This document shows positions 20,692 to 57,957 of a stretch of 57,957 nt of DNA, piece after piece (the first letter of the stretch is position 1; each line of letters begins with the position of its first letter). The position numbers were made by a program, and so were the translations under genes. Under the pieces are notes generated by a model, which saw only the letters and a program-made list of their open reading frames with translations, was not told the DNA's origin and made no database searches. The DNA comes from a virus (taxonomy: Duplodnaviria; Caudoviricetes), in the IMG/VR virus record IMGVR_UViG_3300041583_000163, positions 1 through 57,957 of that record; one strand, given 5' to 3'.

Positions 20692-20855
20692 TTGTAGCTC
20701 CAGAAGATGAGTGCGGCCACAGCTGCAGCCGTGGTGATTACGATAGCGATGCCGTCCCAGTCAACGCGCTGGCGCTCCCCCAGTAGTGCGCGCTGTATGC
20801 GCAGGTCGTCGCTGCCGATGCGCACGCCGGAGCGTGTGGTGTATGGTGTTTTCAT
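20688..20855 (-). CDS. 55-aa protein with C-terminal transmembrane segment (not in ORF track)
   Basis: MKTPYTTRSGVRIGS...GIAIVITTAAAVAALIFWSYK; ATGA coupling. Confidence 0.55.
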   Translation of the reverse strand: MKTPYTTRSGVRIGSDDLRIQRALLGERQRVDWDGIAIVITTAAAVAALIFWSYK

Positions 20856-21511
20856 AGTTCGATCTGTGTTGGGTCAAAGGTGGCAGCTGCGATGTTGGCC
20901 ATGCCCAGATACTGAAGCGCTTTGACATGCGTCTTGTCGCCATTGGTGTCAATGAGCACCTTCGAGCGGAACTCGGCCAGAGTGCCAAAGAAGCAGCTAC
21001 TGCGTACCCGGATAGCGTCTACGTGGTTGAAGAAATACGTGGTGCGTGCTTCAGTGCCTGCCCCTGCAATAGCCAGAAACGGATACCCCTCCTTTACTTT
21101 GGAGCCCTCGAAGCGGCAACCTACACCGAAGCGGCAACCTACACCGAAGCTGCACCGCGCACCGAAGCTGCACCGCGCACCGAAGCTGCACACCGCACCG
21201 AAGCTGCACCCCTCGCCGAAGCTGCACCACGCACCGAAGTTGCACCCCTCGCCGAAGCTGCACCACGGACCGAAGCTGCACCGCGCACCGAAGCTGCACC
21301 CCTCGCCGAAGCTGCACACCGCACCGAAGCTGCACCGATCACCGAAGCGGCAACCTACACCGAAGCTGCACCGCGCACCGAAGCTGCACCGCGCACCGAA
21401 GTTGCACCGCGCACCGAAGACACGGATGTCTGTGTAGTCCCCTGACGGGCACTGTCGAAAACCATCAACGATTGGGAAGGCGTCGAATTCTTCTTGTGTG
21501 TATTTTTTCAT
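20852..21511 (-). CDS. Hexapeptide-repeat (beta-solenoid) protein
   Basis: 17 x FGxxC(S/R/N) repeats; C-terminal RTTYFF...V..SCF.GTL.EF...V cap. Confidence 0.8.
   Translation of the reverse strand: MKKYTQEEFDAFPIVDGFRQCPSGDYTDIRVFGARCNFGARCSFGARCSFGVGCRFGDRCSFGAVCSFGEGCSFGARCSFGPWCSFGEGCNFGAWCSFGEGCSFGAVCSFGARCSFGARCSFGVGCRFGVGCRFEGSKVKEGYPFLAIAGAGTEARTTYFFNHVDAIRVRSSCFFGTLAEFRSKVLIDTNGDKTHVKALQYLGMANIAAATFDPTQIEL
21113..21418 (-). repeat. 18-bp tandem repeat x17 (coding)
   Basis: Plus-strand unit ACCGAAGCTGCACCGCGC with variants. Confidence 0.9.
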
Positions 21512-25464: not shown

Positions 25465-25805
25465 GTATGGCATAAATTATAGCGGTAGGTGTGTCGACGT
25501 ATGGCATAAAGTAACTAATTGGTAAATCTGCCGGATAGGGGGGTGTGCGAACGGGGCAGGCTTAACCTCGCGTGGCACCCTTAAGTCGTTGATTTATAAG
25601 GGAAAATTTGGTATGTGCAGCAAGGTACACCGGCGCTGTGGAGAACTTTTAAAAACAAAAACAAAAACAAAAACAAAAACAAAAACAAAAACAAAAACAA
25701 AAACAAAAACATAACTATATATATATCTTTAAAGTTAAATAGTATTTATATAGGTAGTGTCCGTCACTCACCGCCACCAAAAACCCCCGCTATATCAACG
25801 ACTTA
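25465..25805. other. AT-rich non-coding element, candidate replication origin or control region
   Basis: (AAAAAC)x10 at 25651-25710, AT-rich run, inverted repeat TAAGTCGTTGAT 25582-25593 / ATCAACGACTTA 25794-25805, direct repeat GTATGGCATAAA at 25465 and 25499. Confidence 0.5.
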
Positions 25806-36953: not shown

Positions 36954-38498
36954 ATGAGCCCACACCTAGCTGCACTCTCTCAAGACATCCAGGAGCTGTA
37001 CGATTTTTCAGAAGCCCTTTACCTAGGGGCGCTCACCAGAGTTCAGAACATTCGTTGCAAAGAGCACGGGGTTTTCTCACAGTACACCGGAGCTTTGCGG
37101 AAGGGAATAGGCTGCCCGCACTGCGGAAACGCAGCTAGAGGCGTGTCTAAAAGCAAGAGCGCAGGTGACTTCTTTTTACGTGCCGCCGCAACACATTTGG
37201 GTTTTTACACATACCCTCCGCAAGTGTTCCAAGGCATGAAACACCCCATACAAGCTGTTTGCCCTACTCACGGAGTTTTTAGTATCAAGGCGCTGAAGCA
37301 TTTGTATGACAAGCAAGGGTGCCCAGAATGCGGCGCCTTGAAGCGGGGTATTAGGCTAACGGATGTAAACGTGGGCGCTATGGCCGCAGCTACCAGCATT
37401 GCAAAAAACAGACCCCTGTTTTTTCAGCGTTCCGCCGAAATGCACAAAGGCTTCTATGACTACAGCCAAAGTGACTATCAAGGTGCCCGTAAAAAGCTGG
37501 ACATACTCTGCCCAAAGCATGGTGTTTTCAGTCAACTAGCAGGATCACACATGCGGGGTATGGGCTGCATGAAGTGCAGCAACACCAAGTCCAAAGAAGA
37601 AGACCGCATCTTCCAGCTGATGACCATCTACACCCCCACGCTGCAACGGGACCGCATCCTCATCAAACCCAAGGAGCTGGACATCTACATGCCCGAGCGT
37701 CAGCTGGCCATTGAGTACTGCGGGATGTACTGGCACAGCCACTTCACTGCTGAGGATGAGAAGCGGGACAAGAAGAAGCACATGGCCAAGTACCTTGCCT
37801 GCAAAGAGGCGGGGGTGCGCCTGCTGACCATCTATGAGTCCGAGTGGCTAGAGCATGAATACGCCCTGCGCCGGCTGCTTCGCAACGCTGCTGGTAAGTC
37901 CCGGGGTAAGCTGATGGCACGCAAGTGCGAGCTGCGCAAGGTGGAGGCCCCCGAGGCACGGGCGTTCTACAACAAGTACCACCCGCAGGGCGGCGCAGGC
38001 GCCGGAGAGCACTATGCACTGTTCTGGAAGGGAAAGATCGTGGCCTGTATGCGCTTCGTCTTGGGTGCCAACGACCGAGGCACGGGTGCTGCAAAACGCA
38101 CATGGACCTTGGGGCGCTACGCCACCCGGATCACGGTGGCAGGCGCTGCATCCAGGCTGTTCAAAGCCTTCCTGACAGAGTTCACGCCAGCAGAGGTGAA
38201 GAGCTTCTCGGACAACCGCTACTTTGACGGCGGCATGTACACACAGCTAGGGTTTACCCTAGAGGCAGATGTGATCCCGGACTACCAAGTGTGGAGCCCC
38301 AAGATCGGGGTGCGTCCAAAGTCGCATTACCAGCGCCGCGTTTTGCCTAAGCGATTGTTGGAGCATGGGATCGAAGACAGCTTTGACCCCGAGACAGACC
38401 CCCGCACGGAGCAGGACATGACCTTTCTGATGGGCGCAGGCCGCATCTACGATTGTGGTAAGAAGCGCTGGGTATGGACAGCTGCCCCCAAGCAGTGA
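36954..38498 (+). CDS. Hef-like homing endonuclease (three Zn-ribbon repeats, PD-(D/E)XK domain, GNAT-like C-terminus)
   Basis: 3 x C..HG.F...GC..C; ELDIY.P...LAIEYCG.YWHS; YDCGKKRW end. Confidence 0.75.
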   Translation: MSPHLAALSQDIQELYDFSEALYLGALTRVQNIRCKEHGVFSQYTGALRKGIGCPHCGNAARGVSKSKSAGDFFLRAAATHLGFYTYPPQVFQGMKHPIQAVCPTHGVFSIKALKHLYDKQGCPECGALKRGIRLTDVNVGAMAAATSIAKNRPLFFQRSAEMHKGFYDYSQSDYQGARKKLDILCPKHGVFSQLAGSHMRGMGCMKCSNTKSKEEDRIFQLMTIYTPTLQRDRILIKPKELDIYMPERQLAIEYCGMYWHSHFTAEDEKRDKKKHMAKYLACKEAGVRLLTIYESEWLEHEYALRRLLRNAAGKSRGKLMARKCELRKVEAPEARAFYNKYHPQGGAGAGEHYALFWKGKIVACMRFVLGANDRGTGAAKRTWTLGRYATRITVAGAASRLFKAFLTEFTPAEVKSFSDNRYFDGGMYTQLGFTLEADVIPDYQVWSPKIGVRPKSHYQRRVLPKRLLEHGIEDSFDPETDPRTEQDMTFLMGAGRIYDCGKKRWVWTAAPKQ

Positions 38499-39248: not shown

Positions 39249-39504
39249 AACACCAGCTTGGACCCGCAAGGAAGGCAAGGACCCCAAGGGGGGTCTGAAC
39301 GCCAAGGGTCGAGCCAGCTACAACAAAGCGAATCCGGGCAAGCCGGGGCTGAAGGCCCCTGCACCAACGCCCAAGACTCCAAAAGACGCTGCGAGGAAGA
39401 AGTCCTTTTGTGCTAGAAGCGCAGGGCAAGCTAAGATGTTTCCAAAAGCAGCTAAAGATCCCAACAGCCGATTAAACGCAGCGAGGAAAGTATGGAAATG
39501 CTAA
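39241..39504 (+). CDS. Small basic protein (DUF6321-like)
   Basis: PAWTRKEGK.PKGGLNAKGRAS...RKKSFCAR...DPNSR....WKC. Confidence 0.75.
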   Translation: MAKTPAWTRKEGKDPKGGLNAKGRASYNKANPGKPGLKAPAPTPKTPKDAARKKSFCARSAGQAKMFPKAAKDPNSRLNAARKVWKC

Positions 39505-39986
39505 TTGAAAACTGGGTTTCTGTGCATGGCTACGAAGGGCGCTATGAAATTAGTGACCAAGGAAGGGTTAAGTCTGTTCAAAGGTTTCGGCGCGGTAAGT
39601 CTGGCTGTATGGTGCCCATACCCGAAAAAATTATGCGGCCTGCCACTAAGAAGCGTTCTGCTAATGGGCGCACACTACCTTACATGGAGATAAAGTTTAG
39701 GGACGGTGGTACAAGAACGGAGCCGTCTCGTTCGTTTTTAGTGCATAGGCTTGTAGCTCAAGCTTTTGTCGGTGAGCTATACGAGGGCGCTCAAGTGGAT
39801 CACATCGACGGTGACCATCAAAATAACCACCGTAATAATTTGCGTATTTTATCGACTAAAGAACACGGGCGTTTGCATCCTTGTTTTGTAGATAAAGCGC
39901 GAAATGCTTCAATGCAAGCCGCAGCAAAAGCTAAATTAAGTGCTATGCGCATATCTGGGGAACTCGTAGGGCGGCACCGTGTGTAA
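39492..39986 (+). CDS. NUMOD4-HNH homing endonuclease
   Basis: ENW.SV.GYEG.YEISD.GRVKS; VHRLVA.AF; VDHIDG...NN...NL; AT-rich. Confidence 0.9.
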   Translation: MEMLIENWVSVHGYEGRYEISDQGRVKSVQRFRRGKSGCMVPIPEKIMRPATKKRSANGRTLPYMEIKFRDGGTRTEPSRSFLVHRLVAQAFVGELYEGAQVDHIDGDHQNNHRNNLRILSTKEHGRLHPCFVDKARNASMQAAAKAKLSAMRISGELVGRHRV

Positions 39987-42050: not shown

Positions 42051-42479
42051 ATGATGCACGACATGAAGAAGATGAAAGCTGGCGGCATGACCAAGATGAA
42101 AGCCGGCGGCATGACCAAGATGAAAGCCGGCGGCATGACCAAGATGGCCATGGGCGGTACCGCGATGATGCCTAAAATGAAAGCTGGTGGCGCCACCCAC
42201 AAGATGCCTGATGGCAAGATGATGGCGGGCAAAATGCACAAGATGAAGGCTGGCGGTATGGCCGAGAAGACCGTGAACAAGATGCCAGATGGCTCGATGA
42301 TGGCGGGCAAAATGCACAAGATGAAGGCTGGCGGTATGGCCGAGAAGACCGTGAACAAGCACGAGTCGCGGCTGCACCCTGGCAAGACAATGACCAAGAT
42401 GGCCATGGGCGGTGGTATCAAGATGCGTGGTACTGGTGCAGCTACCAAAGGCACCAAGTCCCGTGGGCCAATGGCATAA
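42051..42479 (+). CDS. Met/Lys/Gly-rich repeat protein (MKAGG x6)
   Basis: Low-complexity repeats; RG.GAATKG end. Confidence 0.75.
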   Translation: MMHDMKKMKAGGMTKMKAGGMTKMKAGGMTKMAMGGTAMMPKMKAGGATHKMPDGKMMAGKMHKMKAGGMAEKTVNKMPDGSMMAGKMHKMKAGGMAEKTVNKHESRLHPGKTMTKMAMGGGIKMRGTGAATKGTKSRGPMA

Positions 42480-42491
42480 GAGGCGCCCCCA

Positions 42492-43187
42492 GTGAACTAC
42501 ACAGATCTTTCGGCCAGCATTCGCGCCTACACAGAAAACGACTTCCCGGACTCGTTGCGGGCGGATGGTACGTTTTTCAGCACCGAGCAGCAGATCAATC
42601 TGTTTATCGTGCAGGCCGAGCAGCGCATATTCAACAACATTCAGTTCCCCTCGCTTCGCAAAAACGTGACGGGTACGGTGAACATGAATAGTAAATATGT
42701 GGCCTGCCCGCTGGACTTTTTGGCGGTGTATTCACTGGCGGTTATTGATGCTACGGGGCAGTACACGTTCCTGATCAACAAAGATGTGAACTACATCCGA
42801 GAGGCGTACCCGAACCCGACGGCGACAGGTCTGCCCAAGTACTACGCGTTGTTTGGCCCTGCGGTCTCGGGAGTGGTCATCACGCCCGAGCTGACCTTCA
42901 TCCTCGGCCCGACCTCAGACGCCAGCTACGTCTCCGAGCTGCACTATTTTTACTATCCAGAATCCATCACAACGGCCGGAACTTCCTGGCTAGGTGATAA
43001 TATCGACTCAGTCTTGCTGTATGGGGCGCTGGTAGAGGCATACACATTCATGAAGTCTGAGGTCGACATCGTCACGGGCATCGACGCCAAGTACAAGGAA
43101 GCGCTCAACTTGGCCAAGCGTCTCGGGGATGGTTTAGAGCGGGGCGATGCTTACCGCAACGGGCAAGCCCGAGTTCGGGTCACCTGA
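42492..43187 (+). CDS. Tail adaptor/tail tubular A-like protein
   Basis: MNY..L...I..YTE; G.PKYYA; LGPT.D..Y..ELHY; LLYG.LVEAY.FMK. Confidence 0.7.
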   Translation: MNYTDLSASIRAYTENDFPDSLRADGTFFSTEQQINLFIVQAEQRIFNNIQFPSLRKNVTGTVNMNSKYVACPLDFLAVYSLAVIDATGQYTFLINKDVNYIREAYPNPTATGLPKYYALFGPAVSGVVITPELTFILGPTSDASYVSELHYFYYPESITTAGTSWLGDNIDSVLLYGALVEAYTFMKSEVDIVTGIDAKYKEALNLAKRLGDGLERGDAYRNGQARVRVT

Positions 43188-43218
43188 GTACCTCGCAATC
43201 GAATATAAGGACTCACTG

Positions 43219-43410
43219 ATGCTGATCACCACCACACACGGCCCCATGGACGACGCGCTGCTTGAGCGCAAGACGGGCGTAGTAGACAACGAAATCGAGT
43301 GTACAGACTGGACCGAGTACTGGTTGTCTGGTGAGCTGGTACACCGCTCAGTGCATGTTCGATTGAAGACGTCCCCCGTGCTGTTCGCTGAAGCGGCAGC
43401 TATTGCATAA
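43219..43410 (+). CDS. Small conserved hypothetical protein
   Basis: AAGGA SD; W.EYWL.GELVHRSVHV.LK. Confidence 0.65.
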   Translation: MLITTTHGPMDDALLERKTGVVDNEIECTDWTEYWLSGELVHRSVHVRLKTSPVLFAEAAAIA

Positions 43411-43421
43411 AGGAAAATACC

Positions 43422-43901
43422 ATGGCAAATACCCAGGCGATGACCACGTCGTTCCTTCGAGAACTGCTGACGGCCACCCACAACTTCAGCACAGTCAACG
43501 TGGCCCACACTGCCGACACGGTGGACTCCTTCAAGGCAGCGCTGTTTGTTACCACTGCCACGATCAATGCGGCCACTACGGCATATTCGACGACCAACGA
43601 AGTCACAGGCACCGGCTACACAGCGGGCGGTGTGGCTGTCACAAACTCCACGAATCCGCTGGGCGCTAACACTTCGGCAACTGCAGGGGTTGCGTACTGG
43701 ACACCCGGAGCATCTATTTCCTACACGGACGTGACGCTCTCAACTGCTTTTGACACGGTGTTGATTTACAACTCCTCGCAAGGCAACCGGGCGGTTAGCG
43801 TTCACACCTTTGGCTCGCAGACAGTTACTGCGGGGACCTTTACGCTGACCATGCCCGCGAACTCGGCAACTTTGGGCTTGCTCCGTCTAGCCACAACGTA
43901 A
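43422..43901 (+). CDS. Virion structural (tail) protein
   Basis: QAM.TSF..ELL...HNF...FK.ALF...TTAYS..NEV.GTGYTAGG. Confidence 0.75.
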   Translation: MANTQAMTTSFLRELLTATHNFSTVNVAHTADTVDSFKAALFVTTATINAATTAYSTTNEVTGTGYTAGGVAVTNSTNPLGANTSATAGVAYWTPGASISYTDVTLSTAFDTVLIYNSSQGNRAVSVHTFGSQTVTAGTFTLTMPANSATLGLLRLATT

Positions 43902-43911
43902 GGGGTAGGAC

Positions 43912-44490
43912 ATGGCACTCGGCTGGGGTGACAACGCGTGGGGGGATAACGGCTGGGGCGGTACGCTGGAGATCTCCGGCGTTTCTGCTGCGGCTGCGCC
44001 GGGTGGTACTGGGACCTCCACGGCCCTCTCAATACTGGGCACCCAGGCCGCAGGCAGTGTTGGCTCGGTAGCATCGAGTGCTGTCGTCGCGCTTAGCGGC
44101 GTTCAGGCCAACGGGTTTGCAGGCACACCAAGCACGGCCCGCACCGTAGCACTTTCTGGCAATCAGGCAGCGGCCGAGGTAGGAACAGCAGCACCAGTAC
44201 GTACGCGCAGCCTCTCGGGTGTGCAAGCCACAGGGCTAATCGGGCAGCTAACTGCTACTCAGGGCGTCCAGGCACGTGCCGCTGTCGGAACGGTGGGCAC
44301 CAATGTATTCGTGGCGCTGACGGGTGTCGCCGGCACAGGTGCAGCGGGTAGCTTGCAGGTGCAGCGCACAAACGCGATACTGGGTCAGATAGCCGCCGGC
44401 GCTGCTGCGCGGGTAGGGGTCGACAACTGGATTCTCATTGACAACACGCAGGACCCCGGCTGGGTGGTGTTCGACACCAGCATAATTTAG
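43912..44490 (+). CDS. Gly/Ala-rich tail-associated protein
   Basis: GWG...WG...WG N-terminus; LSGVQA.G repeats. Confidence 0.7.
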   Translation: MALGWGDNAWGDNGWGGTLEISGVSAAAAPGGTGTSTALSILGTQAAGSVGSVASSAVVALSGVQANGFAGTPSTARTVALSGNQAAAEVGTAAPVRTRSLSGVQATGLIGQLTATQGVQARAAVGTVGTNVFVALTGVAGTGAAGSLQVQRTNAILGQIAAGAAARVGVDNWILIDNTQDPGWVVFDTSII

Positions 44491-44498
44491 GAAGCAAA

Positions 44499-45440
44499 AT
44501 GGCAAGTACCTACTCCCCCGACCTCCGCATAGAGCTGATTGGTACTGGTGACCAAGCAGGAAACTGGGGTTCCACGACCAACACCAACTTAGGCACTCTG
44601 ATTGAGAAAGCCATTGTGGGCGTAGCCGCTGTGTCGGTTGTAGCAACGCCGCAGGCACTTACAGCCGCAAACGGTCTGGCAGATCAGGCGCGGCAGGCCA
44701 CGCTGGTGCTGACGACAACCACCACTGCAGACTTCTCGGTACTCGCACCCCCCACGCCCAAGCAGTACGTGGTGTACAACAACACGGCATACGTAGCCAC
44801 GCTGGGCAACGCTACAGCAGTTAACGGAACGACCCCCGCAGGCGGAGCCACAGTCACGGTGGCAGCGGGCAAGATCGCTAGTTTGTGGACAGATGGCACA
44901 AACTTCTTTGGGCAGAACACTGTTGCCGGGGATGTTACGCTTGCTGGGGTTCAGACGCTGACGAATAAAACGCTTGCTTTTGCCGCCAACACATTGACAG
45001 GTGTTGCGTCCACGGGGGCCAATACCTTCACAGGCGCGCAGATACTGTCGGATCAGAGGTTGTCGCGCTCTTTGTTGATCGACACAGGCTACCCGGTTCT
45101 TGACAAGGGTAACTCCGGTACAGCCACGCAGACGTATGACTATACACAGGGCAGCATTCAGACAGCTACCGCCACGGGTTCGCACACGGTAGCGTTTAGC
45201 AACTTCCCACCCACAGGCAATCTTGGCGAGTTGCTGTTTATTCTGACTAACGGGGGCGCGTTCACCGTCACGTGGCCCGGTAGCATTTTGTGGATGAAGC
45301 CCGATGGCACGACTACTTCTTCCATCTCGGTGTATTTGGCGGCTAACAGTGGCCGGACAGCTCTGCAGACATCGGGAGTGGACCAGTTCTTTTTCTGGAC
45401 CAGAAACGCCGGGACTACTGTCTACGGGAAGTTGATATGA
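44499..45440 (+). CDS. Tail fibre protein
   Basis: MASTYS..LRIELI.TG.Q.G.WG.TTNTNL anchor; QTLTNKTL; beta-rich C-terminus. Confidence 0.75.
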   Translation: MASTYSPDLRIELIGTGDQAGNWGSTTNTNLGTLIEKAIVGVAAVSVVATPQALTAANGLADQARQATLVLTTTTTADFSVLAPPTPKQYVVYNNTAYVATLGNATAVNGTTPAGGATVTVAAGKIASLWTDGTNFFGQNTVAGDVTLAGVQTLTNKTLAFAANTLTGVASTGANTFTGAQILSDQRLSRSLLIDTGYPVLDKGNSGTATQTYDYTQGSIQTATATGSHTVAFSNFPPTGNLGELLFILTNGGAFTVTWPGSILWMKPDGTTTSSISVYLAANSGRTALQTSGVDQFFFWTRNAGTTVYGKLI

Positions 45441-46447
45441 GTCTTTTGCAGTTAACGTCACTGGGGGTTGTTGCTAAAAAAATCGACATAGCAATAGCAC
45501 ACAATAGTGCCCCCTTTATTTCAGTCTACCCTTGGTCTTCTGGGTTCGGCACCAAGTACGCCAACCCGTCAACAGCAGTTCCAAGTGCCGGGCTTGGCGT
45601 GGCTTTCAGCCCTTCTGGCAATGACATAGCAATAGCACACATTGATGCCCCCAACATCTCAGTTTACCCTTGGTCTTCTGGGTTTGGTACTAAGTACGCC
45701 AACCCCTCAACAGCGATCCCAAATGTCGGGCTTGGCGTGGCTTTCAGCCCTTCTGGCAATGACATAGCAATAGCACACATTGGTGCCCCCAACATTTCAG
45801 TCTACCCTTGGTCTTCTGGGTTCGGCACCAAGTACGCCAACCCGTCAACAGCGATCCCAAGTGCCGGGCGTGGCGTGGCTTTCAGCCCTTCTGGCAATGA
45901 CATAGCAATAGCACACGATATTGCCCCCAACATTTCAGTCTACCCTTGGTCTTCTGGGTTCGGCACCAAGTACGCCAACCCGTCAACAGCAGTTCCAAGT
46001 AACGGGCTTGGCGTGGCTTTCAGCCCTTCTGGCAATGACATAGCAATAGCACACGAGGGTGCCCCCTTTATTTCAGTCTACCCTTGGTCTTCTGGGTTCG
46101 GCACCAAGTACGCCAACCCCTCAACAGCGATCCCAAATATCGGGAATGGCGTGGCTTTCAGCCCTTCTGGCAATGACATAGCAATAGCACACAATAGTGC
46201 CCCCAACATTTCAGTCTACCCTTGGTCTTCTGGGTTCGGCACCAAGTACGCCAACCCGTCAACAGCGATCCCAAGTGCCGGGCGTGGCGTGGCTTTCAGC
46301 CCTTCTGGCAATGACATAGCAATAGCACACAATGATGCCCCCAACATCTCAGTTTACCCTTGGTCTTCTGGGTTCGGCACCAAGTACGCCAACCCGTCAA
46401 CAGCAGTTCCAAGTAACGGGGTTGGTGTGGCTTTCAGCCCTTCTTAA
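45437..46447 (+). CDS. Seven-bladed WD40-like beta-propeller, putative receptor-binding tip
   Basis: 7 x 46-aa near-identical repeats (VAFSPSGNDIAIAH...); coupled to the tail fibre gene. Confidence 0.85.
   Translation: MSLLQLTSLGVVAKKIDIAIAHNSAPFISVYPWSSGFGTKYANPSTAVPSAGLGVAFSPSGNDIAIAHIDAPNISVYPWSSGFGTKYANPSTAIPNVGLGVAFSPSGNDIAIAHIGAPNISVYPWSSGFGTKYANPSTAIPSAGRGVAFSPSGNDIAIAHDIAPNISVYPWSSGFGTKYANPSTAVPSNGLGVAFSPSGNDIAIAHEGAPFISVYPWSSGFGTKYANPSTAIPNIGNGVAFSPSGNDIAIAHNSAPNISVYPWSSGFGTKYANPSTAIPSAGRGVAFSPSGNDIAIAHNDAPNISVYPWSSGFGTKYANPSTAVPSNGVGVAFSPS
45485..46444 (+). repeat. 138-bp tandem repeat x7 (coding)
   Basis: Units start at 45485, 45623 and onward with a 138-bp period. Confidence 0.95.
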
Positions 46448-46450
46448 AAA

Positions 46451-46762
46451 ATGAACAAACAAGAAACACTAAAAACATCTTTGCAGCAACGCAAAGAAGA
46501 GATATTCGGTTACCAACTGAACATCGACAACTACACATTGATGGTTTCAAGGCTCCCATCCGTCTGGCCTGAAGACATGCTCAAATTCCGAGGGGCCGAT
46601 CTTGCCACGCTGGTCGCCAACATTCAGGACGAAGCGCAGATCATGCTGGTAGCAGACCTTATCTTTCGAGACAAGCTAGCAGCCACACTGATGACCGAAA
46701 AGCTGGAGCAGCGAAAAGCACTGTTGGTGCGCGACATTCTGGCTGAACAAATTAAGGACTAA
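46451..46762 (+). CDS. Helical protein downstream of the propeller (possible chaperone)
   Basis: R.EE...YQ.NIDNY...L.TEKLEQ.K. Confidence 0.65.
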   Translation: MNKQETLKTSLQQRKEEIFGYQLNIDNYTLMVSRLPSVWPEDMLKFRGADLATLVANIQDEAQIMLVADLIFRDKLAATLMTEKLEQRKALLVRDILAEQIKD

Positions 46763-47263: not shown

Positions 47264-47740
47264 ATGATCCCATTACTCCCCGCTATTCTCTCCACGCTGC
47301 TGGCGAACAACCTGCCGAAAGTGGCGCAGGCGGTGCTGGACAGGGGTCTGGACTACGTGCAAGAAAAGACTGGCATCGAGATCAAGCCTGATATGTCGGG
47401 CGAGGAGATCACAGCGCTGCGTGATGCCGCCCAGAAGCACGTCGAGCTGGCCAACCAGGACCGCGCAGATGCCCGCGCCATGCAGGTGGCTGCACTGCAG
47501 CAAGAAGACAGCTTCTCCAAGCGCTTCGTAATGTACCTCACCATCTTCTGGTCCGTGGTGTCTTCGCTCTACATCGCGGGTATCACATTCATCGAGCTGC
47601 CTATAGCCAGCACACGCTTCGCAGACACGATCCTTGGTTTTCTGCTGGGCACAGTCATTAGCGCCTTCGTGCAGTTCTGGGTGGGTTCATCCAACGGCAG
47701 CCACAAGAAGACTGACCTCATGGGCGGAGGCCGAAAATGA
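47264..47740 (+). CDS. Putative holin
   Basis: DR.DAR.MQ, two TM segments, F..GSS.GS; directly upstream of the endolysin. Confidence 0.7.
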   Translation: MIPLLPAILSTLLANNLPKVAQAVLDRGLDYVQEKTGIEIKPDMSGEEITALRDAAQKHVELANQDRADARAMQVAALQQEDSFSKRFVMYLTIFWSVVSSLYIAGITFIELPIASTRFADTILGFLLGTVISAFVQFWVGSSNGSHKKTDLMGGGRK

Positions 47741-48405
47741 TCCCTTTGAGCCCGGATCAGTTGATGCTGGCCACGGGGTCGAACCGCGCCAACGCGGAGT
47801 TGTTTCTGCCCTTCTTGCAGGGCACCTGCAAAGCCTATGACATCACGAGCCCACTGCGTGTCGCGGCGTTCCTGAGCCAGATCGGGCACGAGTCTGGTGG
47901 GCTATCCCAGCTCGAAGAGAACCTGAACTACTCGGCCATGGGCCTTGCGGCCACATGGCCCACACGCTTTGCACAACGCGACATGTCGGGTGCCTACCTG
48001 AAAGACGCCAAAGGGCGCCACCTGCCGACGGAGCGCGCGCGACTGTTTCATCGCAAGCCCGAGATGATTGCAAACTCCGTGTACGCCAACCGAATGGGCA
48101 ATGGCTCCGAGGAGTCTGGCGACGGATGGCGCCACCGGGGCTTCGGCCTGAAACAGCTGACTGGCAAGAACAACCAGCGTGCGTGCGGGCGCGCCATTGG
48201 GGAGAACTTTGAACTACACCCCGAGCGCTTGATGCTGCCAGTGAACGCGGCACTTTCTGCTGGATGGTTCTGGTCGGTGAACAAGCTTAACCGGCTGGCT
48301 GACACTGGTGATGTCCGAGGGATGACGCTCGCAATCAATGGCGGTACTATAGGGCTTGCCCAGCGCGAGGCGCTGTACCAGCAGGCGCTTCCTGCGTTCG
48401 CATAA
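47737..48405 (+). CDS. Endolysin, glycoside hydrolase family 19
   Basis: AAFLSQIGHESGG...EENLNYS; GDGWRHRG.G.KQLTGKNN; SAGWFW; INGG. Confidence 0.9.
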   Translation: MIPLSPDQLMLATGSNRANAELFLPFLQGTCKAYDITSPLRVAAFLSQIGHESGGLSQLEENLNYSAMGLAATWPTRFAQRDMSGAYLKDAKGRHLPTERARLFHRKPEMIANSVYANRMGNGSEESGDGWRHRGFGLKQLTGKNNQRACGRAIGENFELHPERLMLPVNAALSAGWFWSVNKLNRLADTGDVRGMTLAINGGTIGLAQREALYQQALPAFA

Positions 48406-56052: not shown

Positions 56053-57957
56053 ATGACAATCGAAGCTGTGCTGTCGGACGGACGCGTCCTTGAGTTTCCT
56101 GACGGCACGCCGTCTTCGGTCATACAAGCCACGGTCAAACGTCTGGTAGCAGCTGCGCCGAACCCCAACGCAAACAAGACGTTCCTCGGAGACATTGGCA
56201 CTTCGCTCAAACAGGGCGCATTGGGGTCTACCAAGGCGCTGACCAATGTGTTCGGCGCGGACAACGCGGCGTCTCGTGCACTCCAAGCGCGTGTGGATGC
56301 GGCCCAGACGGAGTTCAGTCCTGCGCGTCAGGAAGAGCTGAAGATGCAGGCCGAGCGCATGAAGGCCGCTGAGGCATCCGGCAGCATGATGGAAGAGATT
56401 AAGGCAGCTGCAAAAAGTGTTGCGGAGGCACCGCTGCAGTCTGCTGCCCAAGCCATCGGCTCATTCGCACCATATGTACCCGCCCTGATAGCAGGCCCTG
56501 GAGCGGCAGCACTGGGCTTAGCTGGAAGAAGTTTGGCTATTGCCAAGGCCATAACCAGGGTGGCCCCCAAGTACATCGGCACCGCACAAGGTATGGGCGC
56601 TGTCAAGGGCGCGATCTACGACGGCGTGTATCGAGAAGAGCTGAAAGCGGGCACCGACGACGCCGCTGCAAAGGCCAAGGCGCAGAAGGCACAGGAGTTC
56701 TTCGGAGCCAACCTAGACCAGATAGCATTGGGTGGGATATTCGGCCGGGTTGCAGCTTCTACAGGTCTTGAGCGGCTGCTTGTCCCCGGTGCTGTGCGTA
56801 CTGCAGGCGTTATCCCGCGTGTGCTGGGTACCGTAGTGCCCGAGGCGCTCGGCGAGGCGGCACAAGGTGGCCAAGAGCGATTGGCGCAGAACATAGCTTT
56901 GCAGCGCGAGGGCTTCGACGTCCCTACGCTGCGCGGTGTGGCCGGCGGTGCTACACAAGAAGGTCTTACCGGTGCCTTGGGTTCAGGTGTTGTGGCAGCT
57001 GCACTGGGGCCGACGGGTACACCACAGGGCACCCCACCGACTGCAAGCGATGCAGAGACCGCCCAAGAAGAAGCAGACCAGCGTGCACGTGAAGATGCGC
57101 GTGCAGCCGGCCGCACAGAGCGTGCTGATGCCGAGGTAGGCCCCGAGGCCATACGCGGACGCTCCTATGGAGACCTGACGCAGCAACTCGAAGCGCTTAA
57201 GACGCAGCGACGCACCCCTGACATCACGGAGCAGATGCGCCTAATTCGAGCGCAGATGAGCGAGATGAACGTGCAGTCGGTCAACGCGCAGCGTGAAGCC
57301 ACCATACAGGCCAGACGCGAGGCGGGCATGGCCGCGCGAAGTGCGTTTTCTGCCACAGACCCTCAGCAGGTTGAGATCGGTGGGCTTGGAAGGCCCGGTA
57401 TTGCCCCGCAGCCCGCAGCAGATGCGCAGCCCGTTGCGGCCACAACGCAAGAACTCGAGGCCGCTGGTCAAGAGCGCTTACCCCTGCGTCGAACACCTGA
57501 AGGCGTTGATACCTCGCCTGTCATACCCGAGCCCGTGTTGCGCACCAAACCCGAGAAGATCGCACCCCCCGAGATAAACGTCGAAGACGTCGGGGAAGGT
57601 GTTGTTAAGTACGGACAGGGCACCTCGGGGCAGACGTTTATCACCGAAGTGCTGGCGCTTCGAGAAGCGGGAACGCAGACGCCTGAAACACGCAAGGCAC
57701 TCGTTGGGAAGTCGACAAATAAGGCAGTCATATACGACGCCCTGATTCCTGAAGTGGCGCCTGTTGCGGATGCTGCCGCTGAGCCGGTTGATGCTGCGCC
57801 TGTTGCGGAAACTGCGCCTGTTGCGGATGCTGCGCCCGTTGATGCTGCGCCCGTTGATGCTGCGCCCGTTGATGCTGCGCCCGTTGATGCTGCGCCCGTT
57901 GATGCTGCGCCGACACCTACTGAGCCCCTCTTGACGGCGGGCACCGCTGAATCAAAC
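56053..57957 (+). CDS. N-terminal part of the large polyvalent/internal virion protein (continues into 1..3869)
   Basis: Open frame from ATG 56053 (MTIEAVLSDGRVLEFPDGTP...) to the window end, in frame with TTG 147; absent from the ORF track because it has no stop in the window. Confidence 0.85.
   Translation, partial: MTIEAVLSDGRVLEFPDGTPSSVIQATVKRLVAAAPNPNANKTFLGDIGTSLKQGALGSTKALTNVFGADNAASRALQARVDAAQTEFSPARQEELKMQAERMKAAEASGSMMEEIKAAAKSVAEAPLQSAAQAIGSFAPYVPALIAGPGAAALGLAGRSLAIAKAITRVAPKYIGTAQGMGAVKGAIYDGVYREELKAGTDDAAAKAKAQKAQEFFGANLDQIALGGIFGRVAASTGLERLLVPGAVRTAGVIPRVLGTVVPEALGEAAQGGQERLAQNIALQREGFDVPTLRGVAGGATQEGLTGALGSGVVAAALGPTGTPQGTPPTASDAETAQEEADQRAREDARAAGRTERADAEVGPEAIRGRSYGDLTQQLEALKTQRRTPDITEQMRLIRAQMSEMNVQSVNAQREATIQARREAGMAARSAFSATDPQQVEIGGLGRPGIAPQPAADAQPVAATTQELEAAGQERLPLRRTPEGVDTSPVIPEPVLRTKPEKIAPPEINVEDVGEGVVKYGQGTSGQTFITEVLALREAGTQTPETRKALVGKSTNKAVIYDALIPEVAPVADAAAEPVDAAPVAETAPVADAAPVDAAPVDAAPVDAAPVDAAPVDAAPTPTEPLLTAGTAESN
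57755..57957. repeat. Terminal overlap (right copy) with 5 copies of the 15-bp unit
   Basis: Matches 1-173 plus 30 bp. Confidence 0.95.

Follow-up and report, generated by a model that had tools for sequence, protein, structure and literature searches.

How does a gene come to hold seven nearly identical repeats whose differences are concentrated in a handful of codons? The viral record IMGVR_UViG_3300041583_000163, analysed here over its whole length of 57,957 bases (the window), raises this question with a gene of the tail module whose product consists of seven such repeats, or blades, differing mainly at five codons. A preliminary description of the sequence had pointed out that these codons can almost all be derived from AAT or AAC by changing only the adenines, which it regarded as the signature of a diversity-generating retroelement (DGR). 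As possible causes it had put forward either blade amplification with inter-blade gene conversion and strong selection, or a site-restricted or trans-acting mutagenic mechanism. Our analyses indicate that the product is a WD40-type propeller with seven blades, belonging to a podovirus-like phage found in saline waters, and that the pattern was probably produced by recombination among blades and by diversifying selection on a putative host-binding face, with no reverse transcriptase (RT) or template taking part.

The repeat structure was first defined at the DNA level. Tandem Repeats Finder delimited an array at 45485-46444 with a period of 138 bases, 7.0 copies and 90% matches, free of indels. 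Its units keep the reading frame of the propeller open reading frame (ORF), and the seventh ends early, after codon 44, being followed by the stop codon at 46445-46447. Translation confirmed that the codons previously listed for blade positions 7, 8, 34, 35 and 37 were all exact (Table 1). Of the 35 hypervariable codons, 34 are NNT or NNC with the third base proper to their position, the sole exception being GAG in blade 5. The biallelic sites, position 11 (TTT/AAC) and positions 31-32 (GCAGTT/GCGATC), assort as mosaics as had been described, all four combinations being present. Variable columns were counted over codons 1-44 of the window units, and 23 columns were found to vary. The five codons, with 15 bases, contribute ten of these columns, and the framework, with 117, contributes 13 (Fisher p = 6.6e-6), and the ratio of replacement to silent variable columns is 10:0 in the five codons and 3:10 in the framework (p = 3.6e-4). 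The clustering of variation in the five codons is thus real and lies far beyond chance.

The protein was then modelled with AlphaFold2 on the basis of 44 sequences. The resulting model, with a pLDDT of 94.2 and a pTM of 0.91, confidently predicts a seven-bladed WD40-type beta-propeller. In each blade strand A is formed by unit positions 36-41, strand B by positions 1-6 of the next unit and strand C by positions 12-17, with a D bridge at position 21. This set of strands occurs seven times, and the model predicts that the ring is closed by the C-terminal A strand (residues 328-333), which joins the first blade. Foldseek returned, as top solved matches, seven-bladed WRAP-T designs and the "highly repetitive" Nostoc propeller 2ymu (E = 1e-18 to 1e-15). 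The chain 2ymu_A was also the best sequence match among solved structures in phmmer (E = 1.8e-32), with unit position 37 aligned to a variable R/W/N site of 2ymu. The Pfam beta-propeller matches to the protein were all sub-threshold. According to DSSP analysis of the model, positions 7-8 come after strand B, in the B-C loop, and positions 34-37 span the D-A loop and the beginning of strand A; position 11 is probably also part of the B-C loop. Antiparallel blades with four strands expose the B-C and the D-A loop on one face, the "top" face of WD40 proteins, and the variable codons would thus share one face of the disc. Strand topology thus makes it likely that the five residues cluster on one propeller face, the point that the earlier description had put forward for checking.

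The window protein was compared with its homologues. Among 8000 candidates scored, 1338 homologous proteins were found at E <= 0.001, the best showing 60% identity, and a scan with one homologue located 510 related stretches in viral contigs. A blade hidden Markov model detected seven blades in 106 of 122 proteins, and 81 of 88 blade-bearing frames likewise have seven. The mean pairwise blade identity of the window protein, 0.89, is the highest of the 122 proteins, the median being 0.54. In the blades of the 121 other proteins, entropy peaks at position 37 (3.61 bits), 35 (3.54), 7 (3.50) and 8 (2.94), with position 34 at 2.57. Internal identity reaches at least 0.70 in 12 of these 121 proteins, whose most diverse positions are 7, 37, 35, 8 and 34. 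The window therefore stands at one end of a continuum, with hot codons that coincide with the specificity positions of the family. At these five positions, residues requiring NNR codons (K, E, Q, M, W) account for only 2-12.5% of the family residues.

Close relatives showed the same focus. A motif search found an independent viral contig, L007, carrying an orthologous array of 7 x 138 bases that starts and ends as in the window, with flanks 98.2% (42930-44928) and 94.2% identical to it. Unit by unit, the two arrays differ at 4-8 of the 15 bases of the five codons and at 6-15 of the 117 framework bases, so that the scaffold is kept and the residues at the five codons are entirely different. L007 shows extra variation at codons 9 and 38, and AGC occurs beside NNT at its codon 7. 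A 1390-base metagenome contig (L011), which carries the last three units and has the same 3' end as the window, has AAC, GAT and GAA at codon 7, AAC, ATT and CTC at codon 8, and TGG, CGT and CAA at codon 37. The stretch also recurs in sequencing runs labelled salt lake metagenome, four of which (X1-X4) were compared as Logan contigs. Contigs of other runs contain further residues at codons 7-8 and a G>A change at 45587, and in one X2 contig the entire TTT codon of unit 5 is replaced by AAC. Between-strain variation therefore exists and is focused on the five codons. A joint in an X2 contig from 45614 to 46446, skipping 831 bases, was considered as a deletion and rejected; the contig more plausibly begins within the final unit of another, related strain, this unit having a 34-37 patch similar to that of window unit 1.

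Silent (pS) and replacement (pN) divergence between units were next calculated. In the window the framework has a pS of 0.139 and a pN of 0.018, and the five codons a pN of 0.455; for window and L007 together the values are 0.187, 0.039 and 0.519. A five-codon pN about three times the framework pS, together with the low framework pN, fits selection for diversity on a constrained scaffold, the evidence consisting of pN/pS and column counts. Four other homogenised arrays from viral contigs (L066, L065, L021 and L063) have a framework pS of 0.05-0.10, below that of the window, and a pN of 0.31-0.49 at the same codons. The comparison of blades across related phages that had been suggested thus gave the same hot positions in the family, in L007 and in the homogenised arrays. 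In the four arrays the hot codons form multi-base cassettes, of which two or three alternative versions are distributed among the blades.

Exchange between blades was evident from several observations. The four-gamete test was failed by 55 of the 91 informative pairs of sites in the window and by 47 of the 105 in L007, corresponding to minimum numbers of 4 and 5 recombination events respectively, and framework and hypervariable segment haplotypes occur in differing combinations. Units 3 and 6 of the window have identical frameworks. Unit 2 carries a distinct silent framework haplotype (codons 12, 14, 21-23 and 28), and this 66-base haplotype is common to unit 6 of L007, from which unit 2 differs at 8 of the 15 hot bases. 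Mean framework differences amount to 5.71 within the window array and 9.19 within that of L007, against 10.14 between units at the same position of the two arrays and 10.40 between units at other positions. Differences within arrays are smaller than those between arrays (permutation p = 0.0014), and no positional orthology between window and L007 was detected (p = 0.39). Units have therefore gone on being homogenised or re-amplified after the divergence of the two phages, whose flanking genes differ by a pS of only 0.10-0.18.

These results are best explained by a mechanism in which the tandem 138-bp units would be kept near-identical by repeated amplification and short-tract recombination, through unequal crossing-over or gene conversion, and selection would favour differing residues at loop positions forming one face of the disc. 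In the B-C loop the positions concerned would be 7, 8 and probably 11; the D-A loop and the start of strand A would contribute 34, 35 and 37, a structural blade being made of the 34-37 patch of one unit and the 7-11 patch of the next. New residues would come from ordinary point substitutions, which would concentrate on the first two codon positions, selection seeing changes only there, and would then be reassorted among blades as short cassettes, so that the array would serve as its own cassette store; neither RT nor template would be involved. Within the preliminary description, the proposal of blade amplification, inter-blade gene conversion and strong selection is the one that stood, upheld by the mosaic blades, the homogenisation within arrays, the contrast between 0.455 and 0.139, and the loop positions. 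A further and more tentative idea, which we regard as possible rather than probable, is that the array acts as a self-templated, RT-independent generator of host-range diversity. Frequent recombination among the seven units and with co-infecting relatives would reshuffle fourteen short hypervariable cassettes on a constant scaffold, producing new binding faces far faster than point mutation could, and the device would be recurrent in the family, about one in ten members of which is homogenised.

The explanation that the codon pattern first calls to mind is a DGR, be it classical or encoded elsewhere, in the host or in another element, and acting in trans, that rewrites the blades from an AAY template at the five positions. 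In its favour, the own third base of the position is kept in 34 of 35 window codons and in 33 of 35 L007 codons as positions 1 and 2 vary, a unit of 138 bp comes close in length to the variable region of a DGR, and the target is probably a phage host-binding protein. However, the absence of RT and template noted earlier was borne out by every search. RVT families were found in none of the 84 ORFs of the record by Pfam scan, and a six-frame search of the record with RVT_1 (PF00078) gave no match, the control being positive in 3 of 14 genomes. None of five related records contained an RT, including the complete 54.8-kb MW202701, the other four being 14-51% complete. BLAST of three units found no blade-like DNA elsewhere in the record. 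Exact scans with conserved blade motifs hit loci in viral contigs (5 and 1) and metagenome contigs (3) that were all propeller genes, and genome contigs gave no hit; neither the record nor the genome contigs thus contained a template or silent cassettes. DGRs have a GC-rich initiation element and a hairpin at the 3' end of the variable region, and no inverted repeats of at least 10 bases were found in 45300-46600, in or after the array, which is a weak test for such a hairpin. Adenine specificity was assessed by proxies suited to a locus with no template for comparison, namely invariant A columns, variable non-A columns and third bases. Silent adenines are indeed mostly invariant, as had been stated: the window blades have 23 invariant adenine columns, including 8 at third codon positions (six fourfold degenerate) that stay constant throughout the 14 units of window and L007. 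Conversely, 10 variable columns in the window, and 12 when L007 is added, contain no A at all. The unit-to-unit silent divergence of 0.139 rules out recent overwriting from one template, and the fold is of the WD40 type, not a C-type lectin or Ig fold. The AAY-compatibility itself proved not to be diagnostic. A minimum-spanning count over window and L007 gave 27 steps, of which 2 fall at third positions (1 a replacement) where 2.1-4.0 would be expected for replacement changes (P of one or fewer = 0.08-0.36), and the compatibility fails in L011 (GAA, CTC, TGG and CAA) and in the four independently homogenised arrays; in L007 the third base differs at codon 7, where AGC stands beside NNT. AAY-compatibility therefore amounts to no more than unchanged third bases. 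A DGR finds no support, and this alternative, already largely refuted, appears extremely improbable.

The same evidence bears on an RT-free targeted mutagenesis of a kind not yet described, confined to the first two bases of a few codons per blade. Such a process would account for a five-codon pN near saturation with third bases almost unchanged (pS 0.005), and among 54 distinct arrays analysed at the DNA level window and L007 are extreme in third-base concordance (0.97 and 0.94 against 0.45-0.89). Yet the replacement excess is about 3- to 5-fold over silent divergence, as is usual for positively selected sites, and the constancy of third bases falls within the expectation given above, with 1 of 5 third positions varying in the five codons of the window against 10 of 39 in the framework. 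Moreover, the same positions are variable in old, diverged arrays, where they vary at all three codon positions, as they do in the four other homogenised arrays. DNA structure was considered as a mutational target and rejected, as single-stranded DNA folds of five 138-base stretches had z values from -0.4 to -1.9 and inverted repeats were lacking; a recurring stem pairing codons 26-28 with 36-38 showed no compensating changes. No candidate enzyme lies beside the gene in the Pfam and PHROG scans. The site-restricted or trans-acting mechanism proposed earlier thus gained no support, its signature lying within expectation and being absent from L011 and the other homogenised arrays, and we consider targeted mutagenesis very unlikely. 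A simpler history, one recent amplification from a single blade followed only by point substitutions under selection and no ongoing exchange, would explain why all window units share third bases at the five codons, as if from one ancestral blade, and why they are nearer to each other than to the L007 units. Continuous amplification from single blades is the model of Pereira and Lupas, and independent amplification in close relatives is among the cases described there for other propellers (PMC9218822). This history is opposed by the four combinations of the three-base alleles at codon 11 with the alleles of codons 31-32, by the incompatible site pairs and reassorting segment haplotypes, by the 66-base haplotype common to window unit 2 and L007 unit 6, and by the whole-codon TTT to AAC replacement in the X2 contig; it is unlikely, though less so than the other alternatives. 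Finally, the pattern might be in part an assembly artefact, short reads of several strains having been joined into a chimeric array of unreal blade order and combinations. No contig of X1-X4 spans the array, which appears in every run as pieces of 51-168 bases, related strains co-occur in similar samples, and Illumina assemblies are described as misreconstructing highly conserved WD40 repeats (PMC12222747). Against this, blade-specific pieces in X1 match with 0 differences, though X1 is possibly the source sample, L007 is an independent contig with the same architecture, start and end, L011 has the same 3' end, seven blades are what the fold needs and what most of the family has, and blades differ within all relatives. 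An artefact is thus distinctly unlikely.

Some observations nevertheless weigh against recombination and selection as a full account. The lineage of window and L007 has the highest NNY shares among the 54 arrays (0.97 and 1.00, the others ranging from 0.51 to 0.91). In the window, the five codons show slightly less third-base variation than is found at silent sites of the framework (pS 0.005 against 0.139), a difference that is not significant and goes in the direction expected from a codon-position-restricted process. Blade order and number depend on one assembly and on contig-level run data, for a class of repeats in which Illumina assembly is described as unreliable (PMC12222747). The placement of the variable residues on one face derives from strand topology and WD40 alignment, and suggests rather than fixes a common face. 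Repeat-number polymorphism, which unequal crossing-over would be expected to generate and which typifies it in the fungal HNWD genes, was not seen, the two full arrays of the lineage, window and L007, both having 7 units.

The array was then compared with known systems. In Podospora anserina, the HNWD genes (het-e, het-d, het-r and NWD paralogues) are described as having WD40 repeats more than 80% identical within a gene, under concerted evolution, with few hypervariable codons per repeat that are under diversifying selection and lie on the interaction surface (PMC12222747, PMC4986451). The phage array resembles them in its internal identity of 0.89, its five hot codons at the equivalent B-C and D-A loops, a pN higher than pS and its mosaic blades. 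The HNWD proteins, by contrast, are cytoplasmic NLRs with NACHT and HET domains and repeats of about 42 residues, usually 11 forming a double propeller, and show marked repeat-number polymorphism, whereas the phage lineage is fixed at 7 in the two full arrays seen and its product is a free-standing 336-residue propeller of the tail module with 46-residue blades. No NACHT/NB-ARC-type NTPase was found in the propeller protein or its neighbours by Pfam and PHROG scans. By analogy, the propeller may work like the repeat domains of NLR (STAND) sensors, but it is not a member of that class. Prokaryotic Highly-Repetitive WD40 proteins were defined with an internal identity cut-off of 0.7 and show diversity at predicted hotspot sites (Hu et al. 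2017; PMC5587647). The criterion of Dyrka 2014 for high internal conservation is given as above 80-85%, and recently amplified propellers are reported from all kingdoms "including viruses" (PMC9218822). Like the prokaryotic WD40/WRAP group, which includes 2ymu of Nostoc punctiforme, the phage array exceeds 0.7 identity and has hotspot diversity, and this group provided its top sequence and fold matches. The prokaryotic proteins are, however, chromosomal bacterial products, often of 14 blades and linked to STAND/TIR-type modules, which the phage protein is not, and the phage blade, at 46 residues against 40-42 in the WD40 unit, is extended in the C-D/D-A stretch. The sections available on these prokaryotic propellers describe neither a member from a phage tail nor the turnover of one between strains. 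Taken together, the array shows the fold, identity, hotspot variation, diversifying selection and repeat shuffling of highly repetitive WD40 propellers, and no repeat-number polymorphism.

Among phage proteins, the receptor-binding proteins diversified by DGRs, of the Bordetella phage BPP-1 Mtd type, combine a constant scaffold with few hypervariable codons on a C-type lectin fold. The phage array is similar in its constant scaffold and in the small set of mostly NNY hypervariable codons on a probable host-binding surface, and differs in having no RT, template repeat, adenine specificity or 3' hairpin element and in its WD40 fold. The same blade family was recognised in a "wD40 repeat protein" of MW202701.1 (714 residues, 14 blades; tblastn 56.8% identity) and in hypothetical proteins of Pseudomonas phages ZRG1 and POR1 and Salicola phage CGphi29 (30%, 25% and 27%), all annotated merely as WD40 repeat or hypothetical proteins. 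These homologues are likewise placed before small ORFs and lysis genes, and BFVD fold matches of phage homologues had TM scores of 0.81-0.87. Their blades are far more diverged, as in MW202701, with a 141-bp period, 75-76% matches and a framework pS of 0.69. An identity with the podophage nozzle propeller was considered and rejected, the protein described being a different one (PMC13730344). The portions of the literature on DGRs with propeller targets and on WD40 proteins in hypersaline viruses that were available held nothing bearing on the propeller gene. A full-text literature search found no description of the near-identical-blade regime in a phage tail protein, and the survey of repetitive propellers, in the sections available, mentions viruses only in passing (PMC9218822).

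Gene content and order are consistent with a tail location. The record, for which CheckV estimates a completeness of 91%, is the entire IMG/VR entry, and a Pfam scan of 84 ORFs and a PHROG scan of 45 ORFs revealed a podovirus-like phage encoding terminase, portal, capsid, SU10-type adaptor, family-A DNA polymerase, primase-helicase, endolysin and large virion proteins. The propeller gene sits after the SU10-type adaptor gene and before the lysis genes and further virion proteins, an order identical in MW202701, and its start codon and the stop codon of the preceding ORF overlap in the sequence ATGA. The protein weakly matches phrog_27373 "tail protein" (E = 7.7e-5), and homologues are fused to fn3 or discoidin domains. 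The earlier designations as tail gene and receptor-binding surface keep a conditional value, gene order and homologue fusions being what points to them; on these grounds the propeller is most likely the host-recognition, or receptor-binding, part, and variation on its face would benefit the phage.

Table 1. Coordinates of the propeller gene, its repeat units and the neighbouring genes in the window
Feature	Position	Strand	Description	Evidence
SU10-type head-tail adaptor gene	42492-43187	+	Marks tail module	Pfam PF24175, E = 1.2e-18
Upstream ORF	44499-45440	+	313 aa; unknown function; translationally coupled to propeller gene	phrog_31104
Propeller gene	45437-46447	+	336 aa: 16-residue N-terminal lead and seven 46-residue WD40-type blades	ORF list, translation, AlphaFold2, Foldseek, phmmer
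Repeat unit 1	45485-45622	+	Codons 7-8 45503-45508 (N,S); codons 34-37 45584-45595 (S,A,G,L)	
Repeat unit 1, codon 11	45515-45517	+	F, TTT	
Repeat unit 2	45623-45760	+	Codons 7-8 45641-45646 (I,D); codons 34-37 45722-45733 (N,V,G,L)	
Repeat unit 3	45761-45898	+	Codons 7-8 45779-45784 (I,G); codons 34-37 45860-45871 (S,A,G,R)	
Repeat unit 4	45899-46036	+	Codons 7-8 45917-45922 (D,I); codons 34-37 45998-46009 (S,N,G,L)	
Repeat unit 5	46037-46174	+	Codons 7-8 46055-46060 (E,G); codons 34-37 46136-46147 (N,I,G,N)	
Repeat unit 5, codon 11	46067-46069	+	TTT	
Repeat unit 6	46175-46312	+	Codons 7-8 46193-46198 (N,S); codons 34-37 46274-46285 (S,A,G,R)	
Repeat unit 7	46313-46444	+	Codons 7-8 46331-46336 (N,D); codons 34-37 46412-46423 (S,N,G,V)	
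Downstream ORF	46451-46762	+	103 aa; directly after propeller gene	
Endolysin gene	47737-48405	+	Downstream bound of module	phrog_181, E = 2.2e-74

The two ORFs flanking the propeller gene were also inspected. The upstream ORF may encode a proximal fibre part; its identification as the missing N-terminal domain of homologues of 550-585 residues was rejected, BLASTP giving non-significant E values of 0.3 and 0.83. Within this ORF, a 78-base difference from both L007 and an X3 contig occurs at 44928-45006, where identity to L007 falls from 98.2% upstream to 94.2% downstream, which looks like a module boundary. The ORF downstream of the propeller gene may encode a partner or assembly factor of the propeller. 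Look-alikes of it follow the propeller gene in four contigs (L006, L007, L008 and L011) and have in common an N-terminal motif around GYQ-NIDNY.

Elsewhere in the genome other repeats were observed. The record ends repeat each other (1-190 and 57754-57957), the first 23 bases recurring at 57754, with differing copy numbers of 15-base GCTGCGCCCGTTGAT units. This terminal repeat falls within a coding region, and it suggests a circularly permuted or terminally redundant complete genome. In the early/replication region, a 219-residue ORF at 20852-21511 (-) contains about 17 tandem 18-base units at 21109-21419 that encode C-x-F-G-x-x hexapeptides, and this cysteine-rich repeat protein weakly matches the Pfam families zf-CCCH_2 and Hexapep. 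Just before the adaptor gene, a 142-residue ORF at 42051-42479 (+) includes 24-, 39- and 78-base repeats at 42062-42401, encoding Met/Lys/Gly-rich units (KMKAGGMT and similar) with no family match. Perfect tandem arrays occur at 199-263, where CGGATGCAA is repeated 7.2 times inside the gene of a 1240-residue LPD38 protein and encodes a DAT repeat, and at 25651-25711, where AAAAAC is repeated 10 times in an intergenic region. Two HNH/homing-endonuclease genes lie among the head genes, at 36954-38498 and 39492-39986 (+), with matches to phrog_559, HNH_3 and NUMOD4.

The best reading of the array, drawn by analogy, is that of a clear phage example of a known evolutionary design, a counterpart of the HNWD proteins and of the prokaryotic highly repetitive WD40 sensors. 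The case also carries a warning that NNY-type codon patterns alone should not be taken as a DGR signature. The large family and its small, confidently modelled scaffold offer a practical system for studying or engineering phage host range in laboratory strains. If the interpretation given here is true, some phages would alter their host-binding face by the same device as fungal and bacterial immune sensors, with near-identical repeats, few hot positions and recombination, and a retroelement would be unnecessary for such host-binding diversification.

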